Positions 13,938 through 64,000 of a stretch of DNA of 64,000 bases are shown piece after piece. Below the pieces are notes generated by a model. That model was not told the origin of the DNA. It did not search any database and was given only the letters and a program-made list of their open reading frames with translations. Each line of letters begins with the position of its first letter. The stretch's first letter is position 1. This DNA is from Squalus acanthias (taxonomy: Eukaryota): the NCBI GenBank assembly GCA_030390025.1, contig CM059432.1, positions 16,060,001 to 16,124,000 on the forward strand, read 5' to 3'. Position numbers and translations under genes: made by a program.

Positions 13938-14690
13938 AGAGTGTTTACCAGCCAAGGAGATTGGATGCCGTTTCATTGCTAGGCAGTTAAGACGATCAGA
14001 TACAGGCACAATATTAGAGATCGGGGAGACCAGACACATGTACTGACTGCATGAGAGATCAAGGGAGATCACGGAAGAATCAACACTGGTAGGCAGCCAG
14101 GGAGATCCGACACAGGAACAGTGCCAGTGAGACCAGAAACAGGGAGAGCATTAGGCAGGCCAGGGTCAATAATAGGTCAATGGGGAGATCTAACATTGCT
14201 ACTCCACTAGGAAGATCAGACAAATGTGCTAGATTCTCAGGGAGATCAGCAAGATAAATGTTTCAAAACAACTAAAATATTTCCTCACAAGGGCACAGAT
14301 GATACATCATGGAGACCTAGAAGTGGACATGTTCTATTCCTGCTAGCCAGCATCGTGGCATAGCATGTAGAAGAATAGGATGGTATGGCATTACACATGG
14401 TAAAGCAAAGAGCATCAGAATAGCTTCCCAAGTGTACAGATCATCACAGTCTGAATCAAAATCCACTGGTCTGGGCAGCTTACGGGAATTTCCTACTTCA
14501 ACAGAAATTGAACCCTTGTGGAATTTTTGTACAATATCACCACTAATACATGAATGAGGTGGCATAAAAGAATTAAAATGTATCCCATACACCAGATATC
14601 TCAGCTTTCAGAACACTGCACAGGTCAATACAGGAGTATAGGAAGAGTGCGTTAGATCATAAGGTAACACAGCCTTGATCCCACATGTGA

Positions 14691-15040
14691 GAAACATAGA
14701 AACATAGAATCTAGGAGCAGGAGTAGGCCATTCGGCCCGTCGAGCCTGCTCCGCCATTCAATACGATCATGGCTGATCATCCAAATCCAGTACCCTGTCC
14801 CTGCTTTAATCCCCACAGTACACATATCCCACCCTACCCCCGTAACCCCACGTATTTAATTCCCCCTAACATATCCCATCCTATCCCCATAACCCCACAT
14901 ATTTAATCCCCCCTAACACTAAGGGTCAATTTATCATAGCCAAATCAACCTAACCCACACATTTTTGGACTGTGGGAGGAAACCGGAGCACCCGGAGGAA
15001 ACCCACGCAGACACGGGGAGAATGTGCAAACTCCACACAG
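14691..15040 (-). mobile_element. HE1/V-SINE, 5'-truncated
   Basis: V-domain GTGTGGAGTTTGCACATTCTCCCCGTGTCTGCGTGGGTTTCCTCCGGGTGCTCCGG on minus strand; CR1-type tail; near-identical to 57351-57700. Confidence 0.9.
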
Positions 15041-15072
15041 ACCAGGTTATAGTCCAACAGGTTTATTTGAAA

Positions 15073-15109
15073 TCACAAGCTTTCGGAGCGCTGCTCCTTC
15101 GTCAGGTGA
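15073..15109 (-). ncRNA. Minimal type I hammerhead ribozyme motif (family B)
   Basis: Minus: UCAC-CUGACGA-A-GGAGC(AGC)GCUCC-GAAA-GCU-U-GUGA. Confidence 0.75.
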
Positions 15110-15151
15110 AGTGAAGAGATACATATAGGCACCTATATGTATCTCTTCACT

Positions 15152-15188
15152 TCACCTGATGAAGGAGCAGCGCTCTGAAAGCTTGTGA
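15152..15188 (+). ncRNA. Minimal type I hammerhead ribozyme motif (family B)
   Basis: UCAC-CUGAUGA-A-GGAGC(AGC)GCUCU-GAAA-GCU-U-GUGA. Confidence 0.75.
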
Positions 15189-15719
15189 TTTCAAATAAAC
15201 CTGTTGGACTATAACCTGGTGTTGTGCGACTTCTCACATTTGTCCACCCCAGTCCAACACTGGCATCTCCACATCTTGATCCCACATGACCTCTGGAAAG
15301 CACTTCCTGTCTTCCTCTTGTGACGAATATTATTCAGTAGGATTCAGGAAATGGACAGGCGCACATATTTACATCCCAGGTAATATATCATTTACAAATT
15401 GCAAATCATCTCCCCCTTCATTTGCAAACATTCTTGGGCGTGTTCAGTTTGTAATCTCAACAGCTGAAAGCACACGAGGAACACAAGCGACCTCAGCAGG
15501 TCCGAGCGACAAATGACTTGAACCTGCCGTCCTTCAATGCCTCTTCTGTCATAGAAATTTACAGCCCAGAAGGAGGCCATTCGGCCCATCTTGTCCATGC
15601 CGTGCCATACATGTCTGAAAGCACTATTCCAATATCACTTTCCAAGATACTTTTCTCAACCTAGTGGATAAAGGCATTGTTATATTTTAGGATATTTTTA
15701 TCCTTTTTCCTCCTCTCTC

Positions 15720-27565: not shown

Positions 27566-28470
27566 ATCCCACCAGGGAATTCTTCATTTGAGGTGAAACA
27601 ACCCAGAAACGCCAGGCCTCATGTTTCTATATAATCTTCCTCCCCTAGTTGATCCTCACAACTTGTAGTTACAATTTAAAAAACTGATGCAAGAAATATC
27701 CAATGCTTTGTACATTTGTTGAACTCACAGGTCATGTCTAATGATGAATGACTACACTTGGCTGTAGAGAATATTTAAGAGAAAGGCGTATTGCAGCAAG
27801 CCTGTGATAAACAACACTAGTCTGCCAAGCACTTACTGAAGCAGCACCAACAATATCATGACTTTGGGAGGGAAACATACAGAAAAGGAACTCTTCCTTC
27901 AGTTAAACCAAAATAAGCTTCAATAAATATTACATAGAGGAAACCTACCGTCAAGAAGACATAATAAAATGAATATTAGTCGGTACGTTCGCAGCTCAGT
28001 ATGTTGCTGAGCCAGATGGATCAGGAATGTCCCAATTCGATCCCCGGTTTTGGTTGAGTAAATTAGTTTCAATTGGGGTTCATTTCGAGGGGCGCCACAA
28101 TGAGTCTGTGCCTCTCGGCAGGATTGGGAAAAGAATCAAGCCTGGGTTCCCACTTCCAATTCCTATCCACAGCCACCTACGAGGACATTGGGTGAATAAT
28201 AAGTTTGGGATTAGCTGTCAAATAGCCTGCTGACACTTCAGAATAGTTTCCTCCCTTTTTGGTGGGTTTATTCAAAAGGGATGTTATTGAAGGAACTATA
28301 TCATTCAATGTATTTTCCTGGGTATTAGGCACAACATTACTTTCCAGCAATAAAAAGAGAAAATGCTGGAAATACTCAGCAGGTCAGGCAGCATCTGTGG
28401 AGAGAGAAACAGAGTTAATGTTTCAGGTCGATGACCTTTCGTCAGGTAATCGACCTGAAACGTTAACTAT

Positions 28471-30204
28471 GGCCGCGATTTCGCCTAGCGAGGCGAGCCC
28501 GGGGTCGGTAGCGCAGTCCCAGCCCGCTGCCTGCTCCATCCCACTCTGCTGAAGTGATTTTACGTCGATGGGGCTTGTTAAGCCCGCCCAGCGAGGTTCT
28601 CGGCCAATTAAAAGGAAGCGGGTCTGATGACGCGTCGTCAGCCAGTTTCTTTAAAGGGGCCATGTCCAAACTGATTTTGACAGTTGTGCTGTCAGTGTTC
28701 TACAGCATTGAGGTGCTGCAAACACTGACAATCACTGCACAAAGGTGCACAGCTGCACCCAGGCTCTCCCATGACTCCCTCCATATGCTTATGGAGGGAG
28801 TCACAGCACGCAGGGAGGTTCTCTTCCCTTCCCATGGGCGGAAGAGACCTCCCCAGGAGACCAACGCAGCCTGGTTGCACATTGCTCAGAAGGACACAAG
28901 CAGGGATGTCATCAGGAGGACCAGGCTGCAGTGCCACAAACCTTTCAATGATCTCAGTAGATCACGAAACGTTACTGCAAAGCCACACTCAACCTCATCC
29001 TGCTGTGCCACTCATCACATCCCCATCACTCTGCCTTCCCTACCCTACTCCTGCACATCCTTGCTCACACCAACTTACCTTGCACCTCCACCCATCCCTC
29101 TCTATCTACATTATCACTTCCCCATCTCACTAGCCACCCTCACACTCATCCTCATCCTAGTCCAATCACACAAGGGTAGGCAGTTGGATGTTTTAGCCAA
29201 TGTTCACGTGAAATTTCTGTTAATGTGCTGTCAAACATTGAAATCTTTTCAACACTTTGCCTTCATGGACAGATTTGTGTGCACCTTTCGAAGTGGCTTA
29301 GTGAGTTGCAGTGAATGGTGAGACATAACAGTTCCCCCTCCAATGGTGGTGAGTGTGAAAGGAATGGCTTGGTCATTGTAGGGATGCTTTATGGTGTTGG
29401 TGTGGGGTGATGCCAACCTGGTGCATCATGTAGCAGCCATATGGGTGTACAGCGTAAAGTTAACTAAATCTGCCCATGAAGGCAGCATCCCGGGCAGCAA
29501 TGTGGTCGGGTGCTGATGCCGTGTCCTGTGCAGCATCAGGTGATTGCGGAGAAGGTTGGTGTTGTTGTTGGTGCTGCTGGTTTGCCTGGTGATGCTGGTG
29601 TTGTGGCTGATCGTTGTGGGATTCTGAGGACCAAGGTGAGATTTTTTTCAAGGGCACCGATGCTGATGGAATAGGTGAGGTTGAGATGACAGAAACGATC
29701 TGTCAATGGTGAGAGAGGTTGTTCCAATGAGGTGACACTAGATAGAGAGTTTGCTCCAAACACTTGCAAGCGACATAAAGCTCAATCTGTCTTCCAAATG
29801 CAGTAAGCAACAGCTTCTAACCTTGGAAGGTGAAGACCTATGAAATGGGAGCTTTTATAGACCATTTGCAGCGGTCAAGTTCGTAAATCATCCCATGCTG
29901 ACACAACACCCGACCTCCTTACATGACGTGATCCCCTAGCAGCAGGGAAGCCATTGGCGAACTCTAAAAATCTAAAGGTAAGCTTAAAATACGACTTAAT
30001 TGCCTCTTAACAATCCAGCTAATGATCTAAATTGCCTCCCCTTCGCTTGGTGTCGGGTCTGTTCAGCACTGACAGACCCGACACCTGGGAGACTAGCGTG
30101 AAGGCGGGTTGACAGCGGGGGTCCCGACCCGCTGTGCATCATTTGAAATTTCACAGCTGGCCCGCCTCCGATCCCGTCCTCTCAGCGCCGGCAAAATTTC
30201 GGCC
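28471..30204 (+). mobile_element. Non-autonomous PIF/Harbinger transposon with Myb/SANT-like ORF remnant
   Basis: TIRs GGCCGCGATTTCGCC / GGCCGAAATTTTGCC(rc); TSD TAT; removing it restores the family A consensus CGTTAACTnTGTTTC. Confidence 0.88.
28725..28975 (+). pseudogene. Myb/SANT-like DNA-binding domain remnant (Harbinger accessory ORF)
   Basis: APRLSHDSLHMLMEGVTARREVLFP...AAWLHIAQ...RRTRLQCHKPFNDL fits the pattern F...LL..V..R...LF...W..IA...RT..QC.K.(W/F).DL. Confidence 0.8.
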
Positions 30205-31372
30205 TATGTTTCTTTCTCCACAGATGCTGCCTGACCTGCTGAGTATTTCCAGCATTTTCTGTTTTTATATCTGATTTCCAGCATCCGCATTATTTTGCTT
30301 TTGCATTACTTTCCAGCATCCATTGCATCTAGTGAGGTGGGAGGGAAGGGGGGGTTACATTTTAAAATGGACCACAATCTGAGTACAAAATCAATCAATC
30401 GTAAGACAATTTTTTTTTTAAATGTAAAAATCTGCAGCCTTCTTTAGCGCCGCTGGAGCCAGCCGACCACGCTTTGCCACTCCAGGTGACCAACACCTGC
30501 AGCAGCAACATTCCCACCACCACGAGCAGACTCCCAGGCAAGGCTGCAAATCCCAGCAGGACCCGGTCCATCTCCAGAGCCGGCAAAATCCCTCTCGGTC
30601 AATGTTAGGGCCGATGCCCAGTCCACCCTGCCGCAATTATTGTGAAGATTATGGCCTCGGAGGAGCTGCCTAGAGCCTCTTAGATAAAGTACTGGAGGTC
30701 ATCCTGTTGAACAATACCCCACCGTAAGACAACTGGGGCTTTGGGGGAGAGAAAGGGAGGGAGGGAAATTGAGGAAGAGAAAAATGAATATAAATGCATG
30801 AAGTTCCCTTTTCTTACTATAGATTTTAAGGAGGATGCATCAATTATGTTCGCTCATTCAAATATTACAAGGTCAGAAGATAGCTACGAATGAGGAAGGC
30901 CATTCGGCCCATCTTAACTCATTCATCCAGAGAGAACATACCCCCACTGCAACATCCTATGCTTTCCTAAGTGATTCCGGGGTTTTTGCCTCTATTACTC
31001 TAACTGGGAGTTTATTCCGCATGTTGATCATGATTTGTGTCCTGATTTCAGTCCTCAAATTATCTCCTACTAGCTGAAATCTATGTCCTCTAGCTCTGCA
31101 CCCATAATTTAATTTGAAGAATGTTCTGGGTTAAACACTTAACAATGTTGTATATCTCTGCGAGATCACCTCTCAGATACCTCCTTTCCAGGCTGAAAAG
31201 TTAAAGTTTCTTCCGTCTTTCCTCAGAACTCAGACGCCTGACACTCGGGATCTGCCTCGTGGCTATTCTCTGCATTGGTTCAAGTTCTTGAATGTCTCTC
31301 TTGTTTCTTGGTGACCAGAAATGGATGTAATCTTCAAGGCGCAGTCTGAGCAGAGTGCTATATAAAGCTTGA

Positions 31373-31586
31373 GAAGTCGCACAACACCAGGTTATAGTCC
31401 AACAGCTTTATTTGAAATCACAAGCTTTCGGAGTGCAGCTCCTTCGTCAGGTGACGTCACTTCACCTGACGAAGGAGCAGCGCTCTGAAAGCTTGTGATT
31501 TCAAATAAAGCTGTTGGACTATAACCTGGTGTTGTGCGACTTCTCACATTTGTCCACCCCAGTCCAACACCGGCATCTCCACATCA
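31373..31586. mobile_element. Palindromic Penelope-like hammerhead element, family B
   Basis: ~85-bp arms 31370-31454 / 31462-31546, 40-nt tail, 14-bp TSD TATATAAAG(C/T)TTGA (31359-31372, 31587-31600); hammerhead cores at 31418-31454(-) and 31462-31498(+). Confidence 0.88.
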
Positions 31587-31620
31587 TATATAAAGTTTGA
31601 TCAAGACCTCCCCTGAATTA

Positions 31621-34441
31621 TAGAAACATAGAAACAGTACAGCACAGTACAGGCCCTTCGGCCCTCGATGTTGTGCCGAGCATTGTCCGAGACCAAGATC
31701 AAGCTATCACACTCCCTATCACTCTGGTGTGCTCCATGTGCTTATCCAATAACCGCTTGAATGTTCCTAAAGTGTCCGACTCCACTATCACAGCAGGCAG
31801 TCCATTCCACACCCCAACCACTCTCTGAGTAAAGAATCTACCTCGGACGTCCCTTCTATATCTCCCCCCATGCACCTTATAGTTATGCCCCCTTGTAACA
31901 GCTGCCTCTACCCGAGGAAATAGTCTCTGAACATCCACTCTATCTATCCCCCTCATCATCTTATAAACCTCTATTAAGTCGCCTCTCATCCTCCTCCGCT
32001 CTAAAGAGAAAAGCCCCAACTCCCTCAATCTTTCCTCATAAGACCTCCCCCCCAAACCAGGCAGCATCCTGGTAAATCTCCTTTGCACTCTTTCCAATGC
32101 TTTCACGTCCTTCCTATAGTGAGGTGACCAGAACTGCACACAATATTCCAAATGTGGTCTCACCAAGGTCCTGTACAGTTGCAGCATAACCTCACGGTTC
32201 TTAAACTCAAACCCTCTGTTAATAAACGCCAACACACCATAGGCCTTCTTTACTGCTCTATCCACTTGAGTGGCAACCTTCAGAGATCTGTGGATATGAA
32301 CCCCCAGATCCCTCTGCTCCTCCACGTTCCTCAGAACCCTGCCGTTGACCCTGTAATCCTTATTCAAATTTGCCCTACCAAAATGAATCACCTCGCACTT
32401 ATCAGGGTTAAATTCCATCTGCCATTTTTCGGCACAGCTCTGCATCCTATCAATGTCTCTTTGCAGCCTACAACTGCCCTCCACCTCATCCACTACTCCA
32501 CCAATCTTGGTGTCATCAGCAAATTTACTGATCCACCCTTCAGTCCCCTCCTCCAAGTCATTGATAAAAATCACAAACAGCAGAGGACCCAGCACCGACC
32601 CCTGTGGCACACCGCTGGTAACTGGTCTCAGTCCGAAAATGTTCCATCCACCACCACCCTCTGCCTTCTATGAGATAGCCAGTTACTTATCCAATCGGCC
32701 AAATTTCCCTCTATCCCACAACTCCTTACTTTCTTCATGAGCCGACCATGGGGAACCTTATCAAACGCCTTACTAAAATCCATGTATACGACATCAACTG
32801 CTCTACCTTCATCTACACACTTAGTTACCTCCTCAAAGAATTCAATCAAATTTGTTAGGCAAGACTTACCCTTCACGAATCCGTGTTGACTATCCCTGAT
32901 TAAGTTGCCCCTTTCCAAATGGTCATAAATCCTATCCCTCAGGACCTTTTCCATTATCTTACCAACCACCGAAGTAAGACTAACCGGCCTATAATTACCA
33001 GGGTCATTCCTATTTCCTTTCTTGAAGAGAGGAACAACATTCGCCACTCTCCAGTCCTCTGGCACCATCCCCGTGGACAGTGAGGACCCAAAGATCAAAG
33101 CCAGAGGCTCTGCAATCTCCTCCCTTGCCTCCCAAAGAATCCTAGGATATATCCCATCTGGCCCAGGGGACTTATCGACCCTCAGGTTCTTCAAAATTGC
33201 TAAAACATCTTCCCTCAGAACATCTACCACCTCCAGCCTATCCACCTTTATCACACTCTCATCCTCAAGAACATGGCCCCTCTCCTCGGTGAACACTGAC
33301 GAAAAGTATTCATTCATCACCTCTCCTATCTCTTCTGACTCCATGCACAAGTTCCCACTACTGTCCTTGACCGGCCCTACCCTCACCCTGGTCATTCTTT
33401 TATTTCTCACATAAGAGTAAAAGGCCTTGGGGTTTTTCTTGATCCAACCCGCCAAGGACTTCTCATGCCCCCTCCTAGCTCTCCTAAGCTCTTTTTTTAG
33501 CTCATTCCTTGTTACCTTGTACCCCTCAATCGACCCAACTGAACCTTGTTTTCTCATCCTTACATACGCTTCCTTTTTCCTCTTGACTAGACATTCAACC
33601 TCTTTTGTGAACCATGGTTCTCTCACTCGGCCATTTCCTCCCTGCCTGACAGGGACATACCTATCAAGGACACGCAGTAATTGCTCCATGAAAAAGCTCC
33701 ACTTTTCGTTTGTGCCTTTCCCTGATAGTTTCTGTTCCCATCTTATACTCCCTAATTCTTGCCTAATCGCATCATAATTACCCCTCCCCCAATTATAAAC
33801 CCTGCCCTGCCGTATGGCCCTATCCCTCTCCATTGCAATAGTGAAAGTTACCGAATTGTGGTCACTATCTCCAAAGTGCTCTCCCACATACAAATCAAAC
33901 ACTTGGCCCGGTTCATTACCCAGTACCAAATCCAACGTGGCCCCAGCTCTTGTCGGCCTATCCACATATTGTGTCAGGAAACCCTCCTGCACACACTGTG
34001 CAAAAACTATCCCATCCGAACTGTTTGACCTATAAAGGTTCCAATCAATATTTGGAAAGTTGAACCCATGACAACTACTCTGTGACCTCCACACCTATTC
34101 ATAATCTGCTTTGCAATTTCTTCCTCCACATCTCTATTACTATTTGGGGGCCTGTAGAAAACTCCTAACAACGTGACCGCTCCTTTCCTATTTCTAACTT
34201 CAGCCCATATTACCTCAGACGGCAGATCCCCCTCGAACTGCCTTTCTGCCGCTGTTAAACTATCCTTGATTAACAATGCTACTCCTCCACCTTTCTTACC
34301 AACTTCCCTACTCTTACTGAAACATCTATACCCCGGAACTTCCAACAACCATTCCTGTCCCTGTTCTAACCATGTCTCCGTAATGGCCACCACATCGTAG
34401 TCCCAAGTACCAATCCACGCTCCAAGTTCTCCTACCTTATT
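31621..34441 (-). mobile_element. Young CR1 LINE, almost complete ORF2 (APE + RT) with two frameshifts
   Basis: ORFs 34007-34393, 32628-34094, 31699-32610: AITETWL, FYRPPNS, SDHN, KSPGPDGI, NYRPVSLTS, DFSKAFDKVPH, PQGSVLGP, FADDTK; (TTTCTATG)n tail. Confidence 0.97.
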
Positions 34442-35369: not shown

Positions 35370-37275
35370 GGCCGGAATTTTGCCTACCTGGGCGGGTCCG
35401 GTGCGGGCAGTGGCCATGGCGGGTCGCGACCCCGCAGCTAGCTCCATCCCATTGCTGAAAATGAACTTACGTTAATAGGGCCTATTAAACCCGCCCAGCA
35501 CGTTACCCGGCCCAATTAAATGGAATGGGTCTGGTGACGCATTTTCAGCCGGGGTCCTTAAAGGGACATTGGCTACATTAGATTTGATGTTTAATCCAAC
35601 AGTGTTGTCAGTGCACTACAGCATTGGAGTGCTGCAAACACTGACAATGACTGCACAGAGGCAGAAGGCTGCACCCAGGTTCCCCGATGACTCCCTCCAT
35701 TAGCACGCAGGGAGGTCCTCTTCCCTTCCGATGGGCGGAAGAGACCTCCCCAAAAGACCAAAACAACCTGGTTGCAGATTACAGAGGAGGTCACAAGCAG
35801 GGATGTGTTCAGGAGGAGCAGGCTGCAGTGCCGCAAACATTTCAATGATCTCAGTAGATCACGAAGCGTTAGTACAAATCCACACTCACCTTTATTGGGT
35901 ATATTCAAAACAGAAGTCAATAGATTTCTGACTAGTAAGGGCATCAAGGGATATGGCGATAGGTTCGGTGAATGGAGTTGAGGCAGAAGATCAGCCATGA
36001 TCTCACTGAATGGCGGAGCAGGCTCGAAGGGCCTACTCCTGCTCCTATTTCTTATGTTCTTATCCTGCTGTGCCTCTCATCACATCCCCATCACTCTGCC
36101 TGCCCTACCCTACCCCTGCACATCCTTACTCACACTAACTTACCTTGCATCTCCACCCATTCATCTCTATCTACATTATCACTTCCCCATCTCACTAGCC
36201 ACCCCTCACACTCCCCCTCATCCTAGTGCAATCATACCAACTAATAACACACAAGGGTAGCCTCTTGGGTGTTTTATCCAATGTTTACGTAAAGTTTCCA
36301 TTAATGTGCTGTCAAACATTGAAATCTTTATTTTCAACACTTTCTGTTCTTGGACAGATTTGTGTGCATCTTTGGAAGTGGCTTAGTGAGTTGCAGTGAA
36401 TGGTGAGACATAACAGTTCCCCCTGCAATGGTGGTGAGTGTGAAAGGAATGGCTTGGTCATTGTAGGGATGCTTTATGGTGTTGTTGTGGGGTGATGCCA
36501 ACCTGGTGCATCATGTAGCAGCCATATGGGTGTATAGCATAAAATTAACTAAATCTGGCCATGATGAAGGCATCCCTGGCCAGCAATGTGGTCGGGTGCT
36601 GATGCACTCTGCCCTGTGCAGCATCAGGTGATTGCAGAGAAGGTTGGTGCTAGTGTTGTTGGTGCTGGTGTTGGGGCTCATCGTGGTCCAATTCGGAGGA
36701 CCAAGGTGAGACAGTATAAAGGGCACCCATGTTGATGGAGTAGATGGTAGGTGAAGTACAGATGACAGAAGCATTCTGTCAATGCTGAGAGAGTTCTTCC
36801 AATGATGTGAGACTGGATGGAGGCTTTGCTGGAAAGACTTGCAGCCTGCAGAATCTGTGCTGAAAATGGACTGAGCAACAGCTTCTGCCTGAGGAAAGTG
36901 ATGATCTGTCAGGTGGGAGCTTTTACTGTACATTTGATGCTATCAAGTAATCAGCTGGAGCAATGGCCACTGAACTCCCGCCTCAGGTTGACAGATGTGC
37001 TTCCCGAGCAGCGTGGTTGCCGTGGCCATGCAGTTAAATTTAAAAAGTAAGTTAAAAAAAAGCCTGTTAAGGGTCTAACAACTAGCTGTTAATCATCTCA
37101 ATTGGATCACCCGCTGCTACCGGTCAGGTCAGCTCCGCGATGACAGACGTGCCCAGGGGGGAAAGGCACGTAGGGGCGGGATGACAGCGGGTTCCCGACC
37201 CGCTGTCAAAAATAACAACTTTCCCACCCGACCCACCACCGATCGTGCCCGCTACCACCCTGGAAAATTCCGGCC
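35370..37275 (+). mobile_element. Second non-autonomous Harbinger of the 28471 family
   Basis: 12-bp perfect TIR GGCCGGAATTTT; TSD ACT; colinear with 28471-30204; W.QITEEVTSRDVFRRSRLQCRKHFNDL; CR1 tail inserted at ~35895-36062. Confidence 0.9.
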
Positions 37276-52698: not shown

Positions 52699-54864
52699 TT
52701 AGACTTTTGGCATTTGATAAAGTCCCACGTAAAAGATTACTAATTAGACTCAAAGCTGTGGCGCTTTAGGGTAATATTAAGAAATTGGTTGAAGGATAGA
52801 AAATACAATGAGAATAACCTGCATTTATATAGCGCTTTTAACGTAGTAAAACATCAAGGTGCTTCACGGGAGCGTTATCAGACAAAATTTGACACCAAGC
52901 CACATAGGGAGATATTGAGACAGATGAACGACAGCTTGGGCAAAGAGGTAGGTATTACGGACCGTCTTAAAAGGAGGAGAGGCGGAGAGGCCTGAAAAGG
53001 AGGCATCTGAGGTGTCCTTAGAGGTACATACGATAGTAAATGGTATGAAAAAGATTAATCCGCAATACTACTTTAAATTAAAATGTGGGAGTGGGGCAAG
53101 GAGATATTGATTTAAGATGGGCCAAAAGTAAGAATATTTTGTGACGGTTGTTATGCAGACAAATGCCCAGCAATTTTTCACATTGCTGTTTTGCGGGATC
53201 TTGCCATAAGGAAGGAATGCTATCAACTGAGCCAAGCCAACACAACCAAACTGAAGTCGCGATTCTCCGCTGCCAGGACTATATATTTTTTTAAGCCCCA
53301 TCTCCAACCTGCGCTTGGACCTAGTGAGGGTTCATGCTGGCAGTGAAACTTCTGTCCCTAAATCATGTAGGAAAAGCAAGGCTTTCTTGCTGCTTTTTAA
53401 AAAAAAAACACAAGTATATTACATTTCAGTTTTATCGAAGAACACGTTTGTTCTAGTGACTACTCTGAATGTTCAATTGGTTTAAAACACAGAGAGGGGG
53501 AGATTCAGCCTCAAATAGAGAGGATAGTCCGAATATGATCTGAGCCCCATACTCTAATATACTTGTATCATTTACTAAAACTCCCTCTAAGTATCAAGAC
53601 ATATTTTCATCTAGTTAATTATCTCCCAGAGCGGTACTGTAATATTTAACATTGGTGAGCTGCAAGTTTGACTCATAAAAAGGGTAAAGATTAAAGTGTA
53701 GTGAAACAAATGTAAAAAATTTGTCTCTGTCCCTGCATTACTGCTTCAACCCAGCAATAAGGATAAGCAAAGCAGACAATAAAATCTGAGATTTTGACTG
53801 GTGTCAGGGTGTTCAGATTAGAAATTTCATTATCACAAAGAGAGAGAGATTTTACTAATCTTGAGCATTAGCACATTTGATCGGAGTAATAATGTAGATA
53901 TGGTAGAACCAGTGTTCTGACGCCATGCCCTCCTGTTGCAGAATTACTGCTTGCAGTCAGATTTTACTGAGGTACGTTTGGTGGGCTGAGACTTTACTAA
54001 TCTTCACCGGAGGTTGTTCAGTTAATGCCCACACTGAAACTAGAAATTGCTTCTCTGCTATCCTCCTGGCCCCCAGATTGCTGGTAAAACAAACGAGGGG
54101 CCGGAATGGACGGGCTCTTCACAAAGCTTTGAAGTCCCTTGTCACTGCGAGAAAGCTCTTACCGAAAGACAACTCCTCCCTCCTCTCAGTCCCAGTTAAC
54201 AGTTAGTGATCATTTTCTTTCTACAGTTAATCTTTAGACAGAATGCATGCTGTGTCCTTACCTCAATGAACAGTTGGGGCGGGAAAAAAAACAAATAAGC
54301 AGAAGATACTGAACGTGGGTTGATTGAAGCTATTCTTAAAAAAAGACTTACTGGGTCCACAGAACTTCAACAGCATGCTTAATGCATCTGCTCGACAAGG
54401 ATCTCAGGGCTACTAATCCTACACACTGTGATATCTCTAGTGTCACAAGGTCCCTCAATAGAACAAGACCGCCTTGCTTCAATGAGCCGGCAAAACAAAG
54501 AGATATTAAGTTTCCTGTCTTGGGAATCAAACCACACATGACACAGCTACTATTTAAAGAACTGTTAGTTGGAGGACAAATTCTTTAGAACCCGTTTGCC
54601 AATTACGTGTAGCTATTTATCATTTTTCCATTTTTGCAACAAATCAATTCATTGGACTAAGCTGTTTAGCTGAGTATAGCTCCTCTTTAAATCCAGTGGA
54701 GCTCTGCTCTGTAGCAACTGAGAGATTATGATTACACTGCTCCTTTTCAAATTGACAAGACAATTTTTATGTCCAGTTCCCTTTAATTCCAGAACTGCTC
54801 TAAGGTTTGTGCCTAATACAAGGTTTGAGTTCTTCCAATTTCTTTAGATTGACACAGTTCACAC

Positions 54865-55160
54865 AATCCTCATCTTTTGTTTCTTAACTTGTCCCATTAC
54901 CATCTCCTTTTGCCTTGCACCATCATCCCTTTTGTCTCTTAATCTCTCCTGCCTTCCACCCTATCACAGACCTTCCCTTTTGTTCTTTCCTCCCCTCCCC
55001 CCTTTCCCTGCCCCGACACTTGCTTAAAAACCTGTTCCAGCTCCTGCTTTTTTCCAGTTCTGACGAAAGGGTCATCGACCTGAAACGTTGACTCTGTTTC
55101 TCTCTCCACAGATGCTGCCTGACCTGCTGAGCATTTCCAGCATTTTCTGTTTTTATTTCC
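54865..55160 (+). mobile_element. Family A hammerhead element, long single arm
   Basis: Pyrimidine-rich leader, then AGUU-CUGACGA-AA-GGGUC(AUC)GACCU-GAAA-CGU-U-GACU at 55056-55093 and family A tail. Confidence 0.8.
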
Positions 55161-57350: not shown

Positions 57351-57780
57351 AACATAGAAACATAGAATCTAGGAGCAGGAGTAGGCCATTCGGCCCGTCG
57401 AGCCTGCTCCACCATTCAATACGATCATGGCTGATCATCCAAATCCAGTACCCTGTCCCTGCTCCAATCCCCACAGTACACACATCCCACCCTACCCCCG
57501 CAACCCCACGCACCTAATTCCCCCTAACATATCCCATCCTATCCCCATAACCCCACATATTTATTCCCCCCCTAACACTAAGGGTCAATTTATCATAGCC
57601 AAATCAACCTAACCCGCACATTTTTGGACTGTGGGAGGAAACCGGAGCACCCGGAGGAAACCCACGCAGACACGGGGAGAATGTGCAAACTCCACACAGA
57701 CAGTCACCCGAGGTCAGATTCGAACCCGGGTCCCTGGCGCTGTGAGGCACCAGTGCTAACCACTATGCCACCGTGTTGCC
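57351..57780 (-). mobile_element. Full-length HE1/V-SINE
   Basis: Minus: A box TGGCATAGTGG, B box GGTTCGAATC, V-domain, CR1-type tail ending TTCTATGTTTCTATGTT. Confidence 0.93.
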
Positions 57781-57861: not shown

Positions 57862-58125
57862 TTTGAAACAACAACAGAAAACGCTGGAAAAACTCAGCAG
57901 GCCAGGCAACATCCGTGGAGAGAGAAACAGAGTTAACGTTTCAGGTCGAAACCCTTCATCAGAACTGAGAAAAAAAGCAGGAAATGGAACAGATAAAAAA
58001 GCAAGTGGGAGGCTGGGGGGAGGAATAAAAGAACAAAAGGGGTGGTCTATGGTAAGTAGAGACATTAAGAGATGCTCAAGGCAAGACGAGATGGTAATAG
58101 GACAGGTTAAGAAACAAAAGGTGGC
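57862..58125 (-). mobile_element. Family A hammerhead element, single arm
   Basis: Minus 57931-57966: AGUU-CUGAUGA-A-GGGU(UUCG)ACCU-GAAA-CGU-U-AACU. Confidence 0.82.
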
Positions 58126-58177
58126 TCAGAAGTGTGTGAAATGCTGGCAGACCTTTTGTTTCAGGAGTTTTGAGCTG

Positions 58178-62330: not shown

Positions 62331-63196
62331 AGTGATGTGGAATACAATCTGCTCAGCTGATGCCAGCGTAAATCAGGGGCATTTTCGTGCTGGCACCAAT
62401 TCGGTACATAGCAGGCTGCAGACTTTCCACCAATTTGTACCTGATCTGACCATCGTACCCTCTCCGCGTACGGTGCCCCTCGCAGTTCAAATGTCTTTTT
62501 TTTTTGGATTATTCCTTTGTCAGAGGTACGATCAAAAGAAATAAAGGAAGTTCAGTGTGATACCACCACACTGAAAGAATTCGGTACAAATCAAGGCAGC
62601 ATGACTCGTAGGTTTCATCACGGTTCAGAATTCCCACATACATTTGCTTGATGTTGTTAACTTCGTCATAGAAATCACAGATCCATGGTGGCCATCCACA
62701 GCACTATTGCATACTACATTGCCATCCTTTCACTGGCAGATGACTTTTTAAAAATATTTTAGAATGGGGCTTTTTTTTTTAAGTTTAAGGGAAAATATCT
62801 TGGTATCATTTTTAAAAACAGGAAGTAAGTTTTAGGGGATGAATAATGGGAAAGCAGATGGTTTCGACAGTGCTTTTCAAGCTTTTCTGTGCAAGGAAAG
62901 CCCCACAGATAATGACACACTCCTGGGGACCCTAGTGTCCTAACTCCAGAAGGGAAGTCTGAACTACCCAAAGGAAAAGAGTGCTATCATTATATACAGT
63001 GACACCGACGTCGGGTGGGAGAGGGTCGTGGCGGGTTAAATACGGGGAACGTGACCACACCACGCAACTGCCCGAGTGTCCCGCCGTGGAGAGGCGGGAT
63101 GCTTAATTAACATTCAAATTAATGCAATTGGGAACAACAACAGAAAACACTGGAAAAACTCAGCAGGCCAGGCAGCATCCGTGGAGAGAGAAACAG

Positions 63197-63233
63197 AGTT
63201 AACGTTTCAGGTCGAAGACCTTTCGTCAGAACT
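63197..63233 (-). ncRNA. Minimal type I hammerhead ribozyme motif (family A)
   Basis: Minus: AGUU-CUGACGA-A-AGGUC(UUC)GACCU-GAAA-CGU-U-AACU. Confidence 0.75.
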
Positions 63234-63454
63234 GGAAAAAAGCAGGAAATGGAATAGATTTTAAAGCAGGTTTAGGGGCGGGGAAATGGGGATGGGGATG
63301 AAAGAACAAAAGGGAAGGTCAGTGATAGGATAGAAAGCAGGAGAGATTAAGAGACATTGAGAGATATTCAAGACAAGAGGAGGTTTCCCTCATTTCCCCC
63401 ATTTCCCCGCCCCTAAACCTGCTTTAAAATATATTCCATTTCCTGCTTTTTGCC

Positions 63455-63491
63455 AGTTCTGACGAAGGGTCACAGACCTGAAACGTTAACT
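63455..63491 (+). ncRNA. Minimal type I hammerhead ribozyme motif (family A)
   Basis: AGUU-CUGACGA-A-GGGUC(ACA)GACCU-GAAA-CGU-U-AACU. Confidence 0.75.
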
Positions 63492-64000
63492 CTGTTTCTC
63501 TCTTCACGGATGCTGCCTGGCCTGCTGAATTTTTCCAGCATTTTCTGCTGTTATTTCGGATTTCCAGCATCCGCAGTATTTTGCTGTTGTATTAGTGCAA
63601 TTGGGAGCCCGATTCAATATTTACTGCGCGAGTTTCCCCGGGGTCAGGAAAATCAGCAATGAAGGAGGTGGCAGCAGCTGCCAGCTCCATAAGCTAAGTG
63701 CCTCTTTCAGCATTCCTTGTGGGTCAGGAATCCTCCCCAGCACCGATCGCAGGCACCTCCTCCCGCCACCCCCAGCCCCAATCGCAATCGGAGGCCTCTT
63801 CCCCCCTCCCGATTGCCGAGGACGGTCCCCGTGTGCGTCTTCTTGCCGTTCGTATTTCCTCCCGCCCACCCGCCGGCCAGGCTGTCCATTCGGCTAAAAA
63901 ATGATAATGAGGTCCTGCCATTAAGCTCGGCAGGACTTCCGCGTCCCCGGCCTTGCCGGATTCTTTGGCCATTTTCAGCCTCCCTGTAAATATCGTGGCC

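Follow-up and report, generated by a model that had tools for sequence, protein, structure and literature searches.

Insertions of EN+ Penelope-like elements (PLEs), as described in parts of two earlier papers (Arkhipova et al., 2013, PMC3846280; Craig et al., 2021, PMC8557442), carry an inverted pLTR, a tail of 30-40 nt on one side only, and a target-site duplication (TSD) that is present as a single copy at the empty site. Passages of the first paper interpret palindromes at inverted junctions as a result of self-priming, and they propose an antisense template as the source of the inverted copy. In the relevant parts of the cited papers, the formation of inverted ends in Penelope-like elements is called undefined. 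Parts of both papers, as well as a preprint on retrozymes (bioRxiv 10.64898/2026.07.22.740005), also describe non-autonomous derivatives of PLEs and trans mobilisation between pLTRs. Part of PMC8969392 treats inverted pLTRs with short 3′ extensions as routine features for curation and describes DIRS-type retroelements as having inverted ends without TSDs. Further context on Penelope-like elements is found in part of PMC6155905.

Ribozyme motifs and enzyme activity are covered by other sources. According to parts of PMC4209133, minimal hammerhead ribozymes (min-HHRs) occur in PLEs as opposite-strand pairs 100-700 bp apart, and their G10.1-C11.1 pair is highly conserved but not universal. Parts of a study of an anole PLE protein (Frangieh et al., 2024, PMC11167929) report that the protein cuts and extends both strands with a preference for ATT, that two reverse transcriptase (RT) start sites on the RNA bound the tail, and that uncleaved RNA serves as the template.

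The insert near 63 kb of the 64-kb window (the whole stretch of DNA that was analysed) is another example of this published Penelope-like layout and is mostly ordinary. Like EN+ PLE insertions in the passages cited above (PMC3846280, PMC8557442), it contains a head-to-head inverted 5′-truncated copy, a tail of 30-40 nt at one end, and a TSD whose empty site holds just one target copy; some of the junctions also have palindromes. The 3′ ends are fixed and the tail is optional, again as in those elements. Unlike them, both copies here are cut down to the terminal repeat and carry no ORF, and the TSDs span 14-16 nt, compared with 8-10 nt in the rotifer insertions covered in the same passages. The initial annotation had treated an inverted pseudo-LTR with a tail as an established Penelope feature, and the descriptions in these papers bear this out. 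We consider it very probable that the insert is the single insertion product of a Penelope-like RT/GIY-YIG enzyme and consists of two unequal, 5′-truncated, hammerhead-bearing ends placed head to head. The Penelope-type assignment in itself has a high probability of being correct.

Layout of the 63-kb insertion

The 63-kb unit is a real insertion in which two stumps of a very common repeat lie back to back. The surrounding window is repeat-rich animal DNA, apparently shark-like in its repeats, with SINEs and many remnants of CR1/L2-type LINEs. The unit comprises the following features.

63118..63133, plus strand: left TSD copy, 16 nt; its final base fits the arm as well
63134..63382, minus strand: left arm of ~249 nt, an antisense, tail-less copy of the family-A terminal repeat truncated at its 5′ end
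63197..63233, minus strand: minimal type I hammerhead motif of the left arm, core at 63229
63383..63396, no strand: head-to-head junction, pyrimidine-rich; the exact start of the right arm is uncertain
63397..63554, plus strand: right arm, a sense, 5′-truncated copy of the same family-A terminal repeat
63455..63491, plus strand: minimal type I hammerhead motif of the right arm, core at 63459
63555..63590, plus strand: tail, 36 nt, on the right arm only; 39 nt when the first three TSD letters are counted
63591..63606, plus strand: right TSD copy, 16 nt; its initial 3 letters fit the tail end of the family as well

The insert proper (63134-63590) is 457 nt long, and the two 16-nt direct repeats that bound it within the 64-kb window are identical at 15 of 16 positions. 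The initial annotation had described a ~457-bp insertion with a 16-bp, one-mismatch TSD and a ~37-nt tail restricted to the right arm, all of which agrees with these measurements. Its inverted arms also exist, but the figure of ~165 bp reflects an ungapped 166-nt extension that runs into the TSD; the match itself covers 159 nt (63133-63291 against 63397-63555, 147 of 159 identical). The 105 nt between the matched arms are mostly a continuation of the left arm, with antisense family sequence reaching ~63382. Specifically, 63130-63356 matches 55160-54933 at 87%, and 63350-63382 matches 58058-58090. Because the left arm runs on through the supposed loop, the unit consists of two unequal 5′-truncated copies arranged head to head. 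The left arm extends about 90 nt further in the 5′ direction than the sense arm, which begins somewhere in 63383-63397.

The arms agree with each other at 146 of 158 positions, and each is 85-86% identical to the copy at 55 kb. At one site the two arms read TG and CA, versus CG in the 58-kb copy. Both arms belong to one subfamily.

The TSDs at this and three related loci (listed below) stand out from chance, since none of 400 random pairs of 60-nt windows scored as high as the lowest of the four. By eye, the TSD ends overlap the element ends by approximately 4 letters in total at each locus, and thus the stagger lies between 10 and 16 nt across loci (12-16 nt at 63 kb, 10-15 nt at 28 kb, and 10-14 nt at both 14 and 31 kb). 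The proposed stagger of ~15 nt falls within this range but near its upper bound, owing to the same overlap. The sequence ATT is located at the tail end of both family-A TSDs (63 and 28 kb).

Related loci, empty sites and family copies

Three further inverted insertions lie in the window, two of them belonging to a second family, B, together with single copies of the family-A end.

14674..15288, no strand: family-B inverted insertion; TSD 14/14; near-perfect palindrome at the centre (~15130)
28335..30318, no strand: second family-A inverted insertion; TSD 15/15
31359..31600, no strand: family-B inverted insertion; TSD 13/14; two hammerhead cores 15 nt apart; right-hand tail
54855..55159, plus strand: single, non-inverted, tail-less family-A copy that displays the sequence 5′ of the arms
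57865..58143, minus strand: single, non-inverted, tail-less family-A copy; it is the one most similar to the 63-kb arms, with 129/141 matching the left arm

The initial annotation had seen the same design at all three inverted loci and in both families. The TSDs are indeed real, but the intervals 14688-15274 and 28350-30303 hold nested elements, and the 28-kb locus, despite its inverted arms, has only one hammerhead core because its right arm starts inside helix II. This right arm is split by a nested element of 1734 nt (28471-30204) with 3-nt duplications. Part of the outer left arm at 14 kb is replaced by a 5′-truncated SINE of 350 nt (14693-15042) that is 96% identical to a full copy starting at 57351. 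The clean family-B example is 31373-31586, whose palindromic centre is at 31451-31460. As at 63 kb, the tail sits on the right arm at the 14-, 28- and 31-kb loci.

Several observations concern the neighbouring repeats. The truncated 5′ end of the nested SINE (14688-15045) resembles the replaced family-B arm over ~25 nt, and microhomology or template switching may have produced this junction. The element nested at 28471-30204 has a second long copy at 35370-37275. The two are ~77% alike, have short inverted ends starting with GGCC and 3-nt duplications (TAT, ACT), and give a weak Myb/SANT-like match with an E value of 0.0088, below the cut-off; the element is likely of PIF/Harbinger type. Both copies are in or adjoining a family-A hammerhead arm, which may be chance given the abundance of the family. 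On the minus strand, 31699-34441 contains long, nearly open CR1-type LINE frames of 322 and 488 aa and is apparently a young copy.

Of 24 runs listed, four, all from organisms other than the best holder, were compared with the window at a likeness setting of 80. The initial annotation had proposed a search for empty sites, and a joint from 63113 to 63594 was found in 6, 4 and 2 contigs of runs X19, X20 and X16, which represent three other organisms. This joint skips 480 nt, approximately the length of the insert plus one TSD (473 nt), and 13 of the 16 TSD letters remain in these contigs, in a single copy. The sides of the joint measure 25-28 letters at likeness 80, a setting prone to repeat-derived joints, and the intervening letters are not displayed. 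The joint is absent from run X14, which is shallow (631 records). A 1010-nt contig of X19 tracks the left flank (62500-63124) with 33 differing letters and then departs with 109 letters that are foreign to the arm, and a contig of the same depth (15.7) bears an indel at 63667 in the right flank. These contigs suggest that the orthologous site is empty. The contig sequences support the view that the 63-kb site was once empty with a single target copy, although some of the empty sites are probably paralogous, given that several empty-site contigs occur per run and that the host stretch is repeated. Indeed, the host stretch itself (~63000-63117 and 63607-64000) appears as a dispersed repeat elsewhere, as seen from its raised depth and the several empty-site contigs per run; no second copy of it is present within the 64-kb window.

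The arm family is very abundant, with matches in 38,081-88,160 contigs of three large runs, a figure that does not give the copy number. Loose ends peak at 63547 and 63585, corresponding to two preferred 3′ ends, without and with the tail, that are ~36-39 nt apart. Both among the window copies and in contigs of other organisms, the 3′ ends are fixed and the 5′ ends are ragged. Of the 15 joints listed (there are 728 further), 10 lead from the left arm into the right one, and no two of these share the same point. All arm-to-arm joints among those listed are asymmetric, with offsets of 17-92 nt as determined by hand, and several have extra letters between the arms; assemblers may drop symmetric palindromes, in which case asymmetric joints would be over-represented. 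Because the junctions differ in every copy examined, it is likely that every insertion generates its own inversion and that the inversion is not copied as a unit. The idea that a complete fold-back unit moves as such, put forward in the initial annotation, is not supported by this pattern, and the comparison it had suggested of TSDs, arms and inversion points yielded, across the four loci, TSDs of 14-16 nt and inversion points that differ throughout.

A self-contained, non-autonomous fold-back element whose transcript is re-inserted whole, in trans, would have precedent in the PLE derivatives and trans mobilisation described in parts of the literature cited above, and would accord with the abundance of the arm family. 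We nevertheless judge it quite improbable, as the junctions differ at the four window loci and in all 10 arm-to-arm joints listed, single non-inverted copies of the same end exist in the window, and the transcript of a whole unit is predicted to fold into a 159-bp hairpin over its own hammerhead (-291.5 kcal/mol). Such an abundant family could also have supplied two insertions independent of each other, or copies could have been put back to back by a subsequent inversion or conversion, and around loop II the arms do have different letters at 4 of 8 positions. However, one TSD pair encloses both arms at each of the four loci, both arms are missing from the empty sites, and both are of the same subfamily, making this origin very improbable.

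Units of this kind resemble MITEs, which is relevant for annotation: long inverted arms, no coding capacity and a flanking duplication would all be expected if a DDE transposase had mobilised a MITE or a fold-back DNA transposon. This reading is extremely improbable in light of the asymmetric ends (a 36-nt tail on one side), the variable length of the duplications (14-16 nt), the ragged inner ends, the existence of single-arm copies and the PLE-type hammerheads in the arms. We rejected a MITE or other class II non-autonomous element on the first four of these grounds. The preference of the initial annotation for retro-insertion of Penelope-type ends is supported by the empty sites, the two 3′ ends, the ragged 5′ ends and the published layout. 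A DIRS-type retroelement was rejected because TSDs are present. Non-LTR retrozymes, in the parts of the preprint concerned (bioRxiv 10.64898/2026.07.22.740005), are likewise non-coding, hammerhead-bearing and related to PLE pLTRs, and are reported in one chondrichthyan. They are composed of head-to-tail tandem units, whereas the 63-kb arms are head to head, and this candidate was rejected since there is no tandem array at these loci.

The preferred reading, a single Penelope-like insertion product, is weakened by the parent element searches, which linked no RT or GIY-YIG sequence to family A or B. Specifically, translations upstream of five window copies contain no RT or GIY-YIG protein, and a scan for GIY-YIG-like motifs returned no PLE protein. 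Family-A motifs had no match in viral, metagenome or genome contig collections, and two short arm motifs had none in the literature searched. Literature queries combining Penelope with shark and hammerhead, or with Chondrichthyes, returned no account of families A or B, which may already stand in Repbase or Dfam. The portion of the PMC4209133 supplement that was searched contains no shark term, and other supplements may hold shark examples.

Formation of the inverted copy

Within the Penelope-like reading, we lean slightly towards double priming, with four loci only as the basis. By this route, the endonuclease would nick the two strands of an AT-rich site at points 12-16 nt from each other, and each 3′-OH would prime reverse transcription on a pLTR-containing RNA. 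One cDNA would begin at the outer start and yield the tailed arm, while the other would begin at the inner start, 36-39 nt upstream, and yield the tail-less arm. Both cDNAs would stop early and then be joined at their 5′-truncated ends, and gap filling would create the TSD. Two start sites bounding the tail, cutting and extension of both strands and a preference for ATT would be features shared with PAc, a Poseidon-type PLE from Anolis carolinensis (PMC11167929, in part). Arms that span the predicted cleavage site also fit the uncleaved-RNA template reported for PAc. The parts of the PAc study concerned give no account of inverted insertions or TSD length.

Alternatively, the second arm might arise within the same single PLE event by fold-back self-priming or from an antisense template, with the asymmetry produced by later deletion of the palindrome centre. 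This is a variant of the best explanation that differs only in how the inversion forms. Long palindromes can lose their centres, which counts in its favour, as do the palindromic centres of both family-B loci (~15130; 31451-31460). Junction palindromes are also taken as evidence of self-priming in part of PMC3846280. Against it, the tail-less arm at 63 kb has ~90 nt extra and the tailed arm 36 nt extra, the tail-less arm at 28 kb is likewise longer at its 5′ side (by ~13 nt), and the 63-kb junction can form a hairpin of only 4 bp (63380-63391). Neither 63-kb arm is a plain copy of the other, because each holds sequence missing from the other, barring a later deletion at the centre. This asymmetry favours two separately primed cDNAs over a simple fold-back, and we regard the fold-back variant as rather unlikely.

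That the short insertions are direct records of double priming, with one cDNA per nick and one per RT start site, is a serious possibility that we stop a little short of favouring. If true, short TSD-bounded copies would allow stagger length, the choice of start site on each strand and junction chemistry to be read in vivo, and such records would settle how Penelope-like elements make inverted ends. The single locus matters little, being one decayed copy of a high-copy repeat. As a population, the short insertions provide a convenient in vivo data set for the origin of the inverted copy and the one-sided tail.

Hammerhead motifs in the arms

The left-arm motif is composed of a 4-bp helix I, the CUGANGA core, an extra A, a 5-bp helix II, GAAA and the palindromic tetramer ACGU. 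By hammerhead convention, cleavage in the right-arm motif is predicted to occur after 63487. Both focal motifs resemble the min-HHRs of PLEs as described in parts of PMC4209133: they have the CUGANGA/GAAA/UH core, an extra nucleotide before helix II, a short helix I, and no helix III, in place of which stands a self-complementary, palindromic tetramer. They differ from those ribozymes in their 5-bp helix II, which opens with G-U in the right motif and A-U in the left. The G10.1-C11.1 pair is therefore missing from both, which counts against the best explanation; a G-C pair is found at this position in 2 of 8 aligned motifs. The initial annotation had called the hammerhead intact on each strand, and this holds for the core letters but not for helix III, the G10.1-C11.1 pair or a match in Rfam.

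A descriptor written from these motifs, after they had been seen, matches 8 times in the window versus a mean of 0.02 in 100 shuffles. Families A and B have no other sequence in common, yet each preserves both helices and the palindromic tetramer through letters that differ from those of the other, with 92.5% of 80 cells paired, compared with 15-42% in slid controls. This test covers 8 of the 9 motifs, the 55-kb motif having been left out for its one extra base, and two families represent few independent events. The lowest-energy single-strand folds of five motifs contain no hammerhead (z-scores -0.04 to -1.17), and unconstrained co-folding of the motifs gave no hammerhead dimer. Rfam has no match at gathering score in the whole window; at E<=10, the interval 63000-63700 has only sub-threshold, hairpin-driven matches of miRNA type and none to a hammerhead family.

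The presence of two hammerheads per insert would be a side effect of the inversion. A transcript running across the insert is predicted to form a long hairpin that contains one hammerhead together with its antisense. The 63-kb insert was probably dead on arrival.

An open-reading-frame survey found no frame of 120 aa inside the insert, as expected from its description as ORF-less in the initial annotation, but a 45-codon open frame (63459-63593) crosses both the hammerhead and the tail and contains an in-frame ATG (63510). The ORF of PAc overlaps its pLTR in the same manner. Pyrimidine tracts ending in AG, possible splice acceptors, directly precede this ATG, and similar tracts directly precede the tail in related copies of both families. 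The frame had no match among longer proteins and four among representative proteins, with no PLE protein among them. Three of these look like chance translations of the same repeat, being short unnamed singletons, and the fourth is an unrelated repetitive protein.

Many copies of the family end within a few bases of the hammerhead core, on its 5′ side (at 63232 in 204 and 232 contigs of two runs), and three copies in the window stop likewise just 5′ of the core (28445, 31454 and 35264). These stops could be due to RT halting at the ribozyme or to an alignment effect of the T run upstream.
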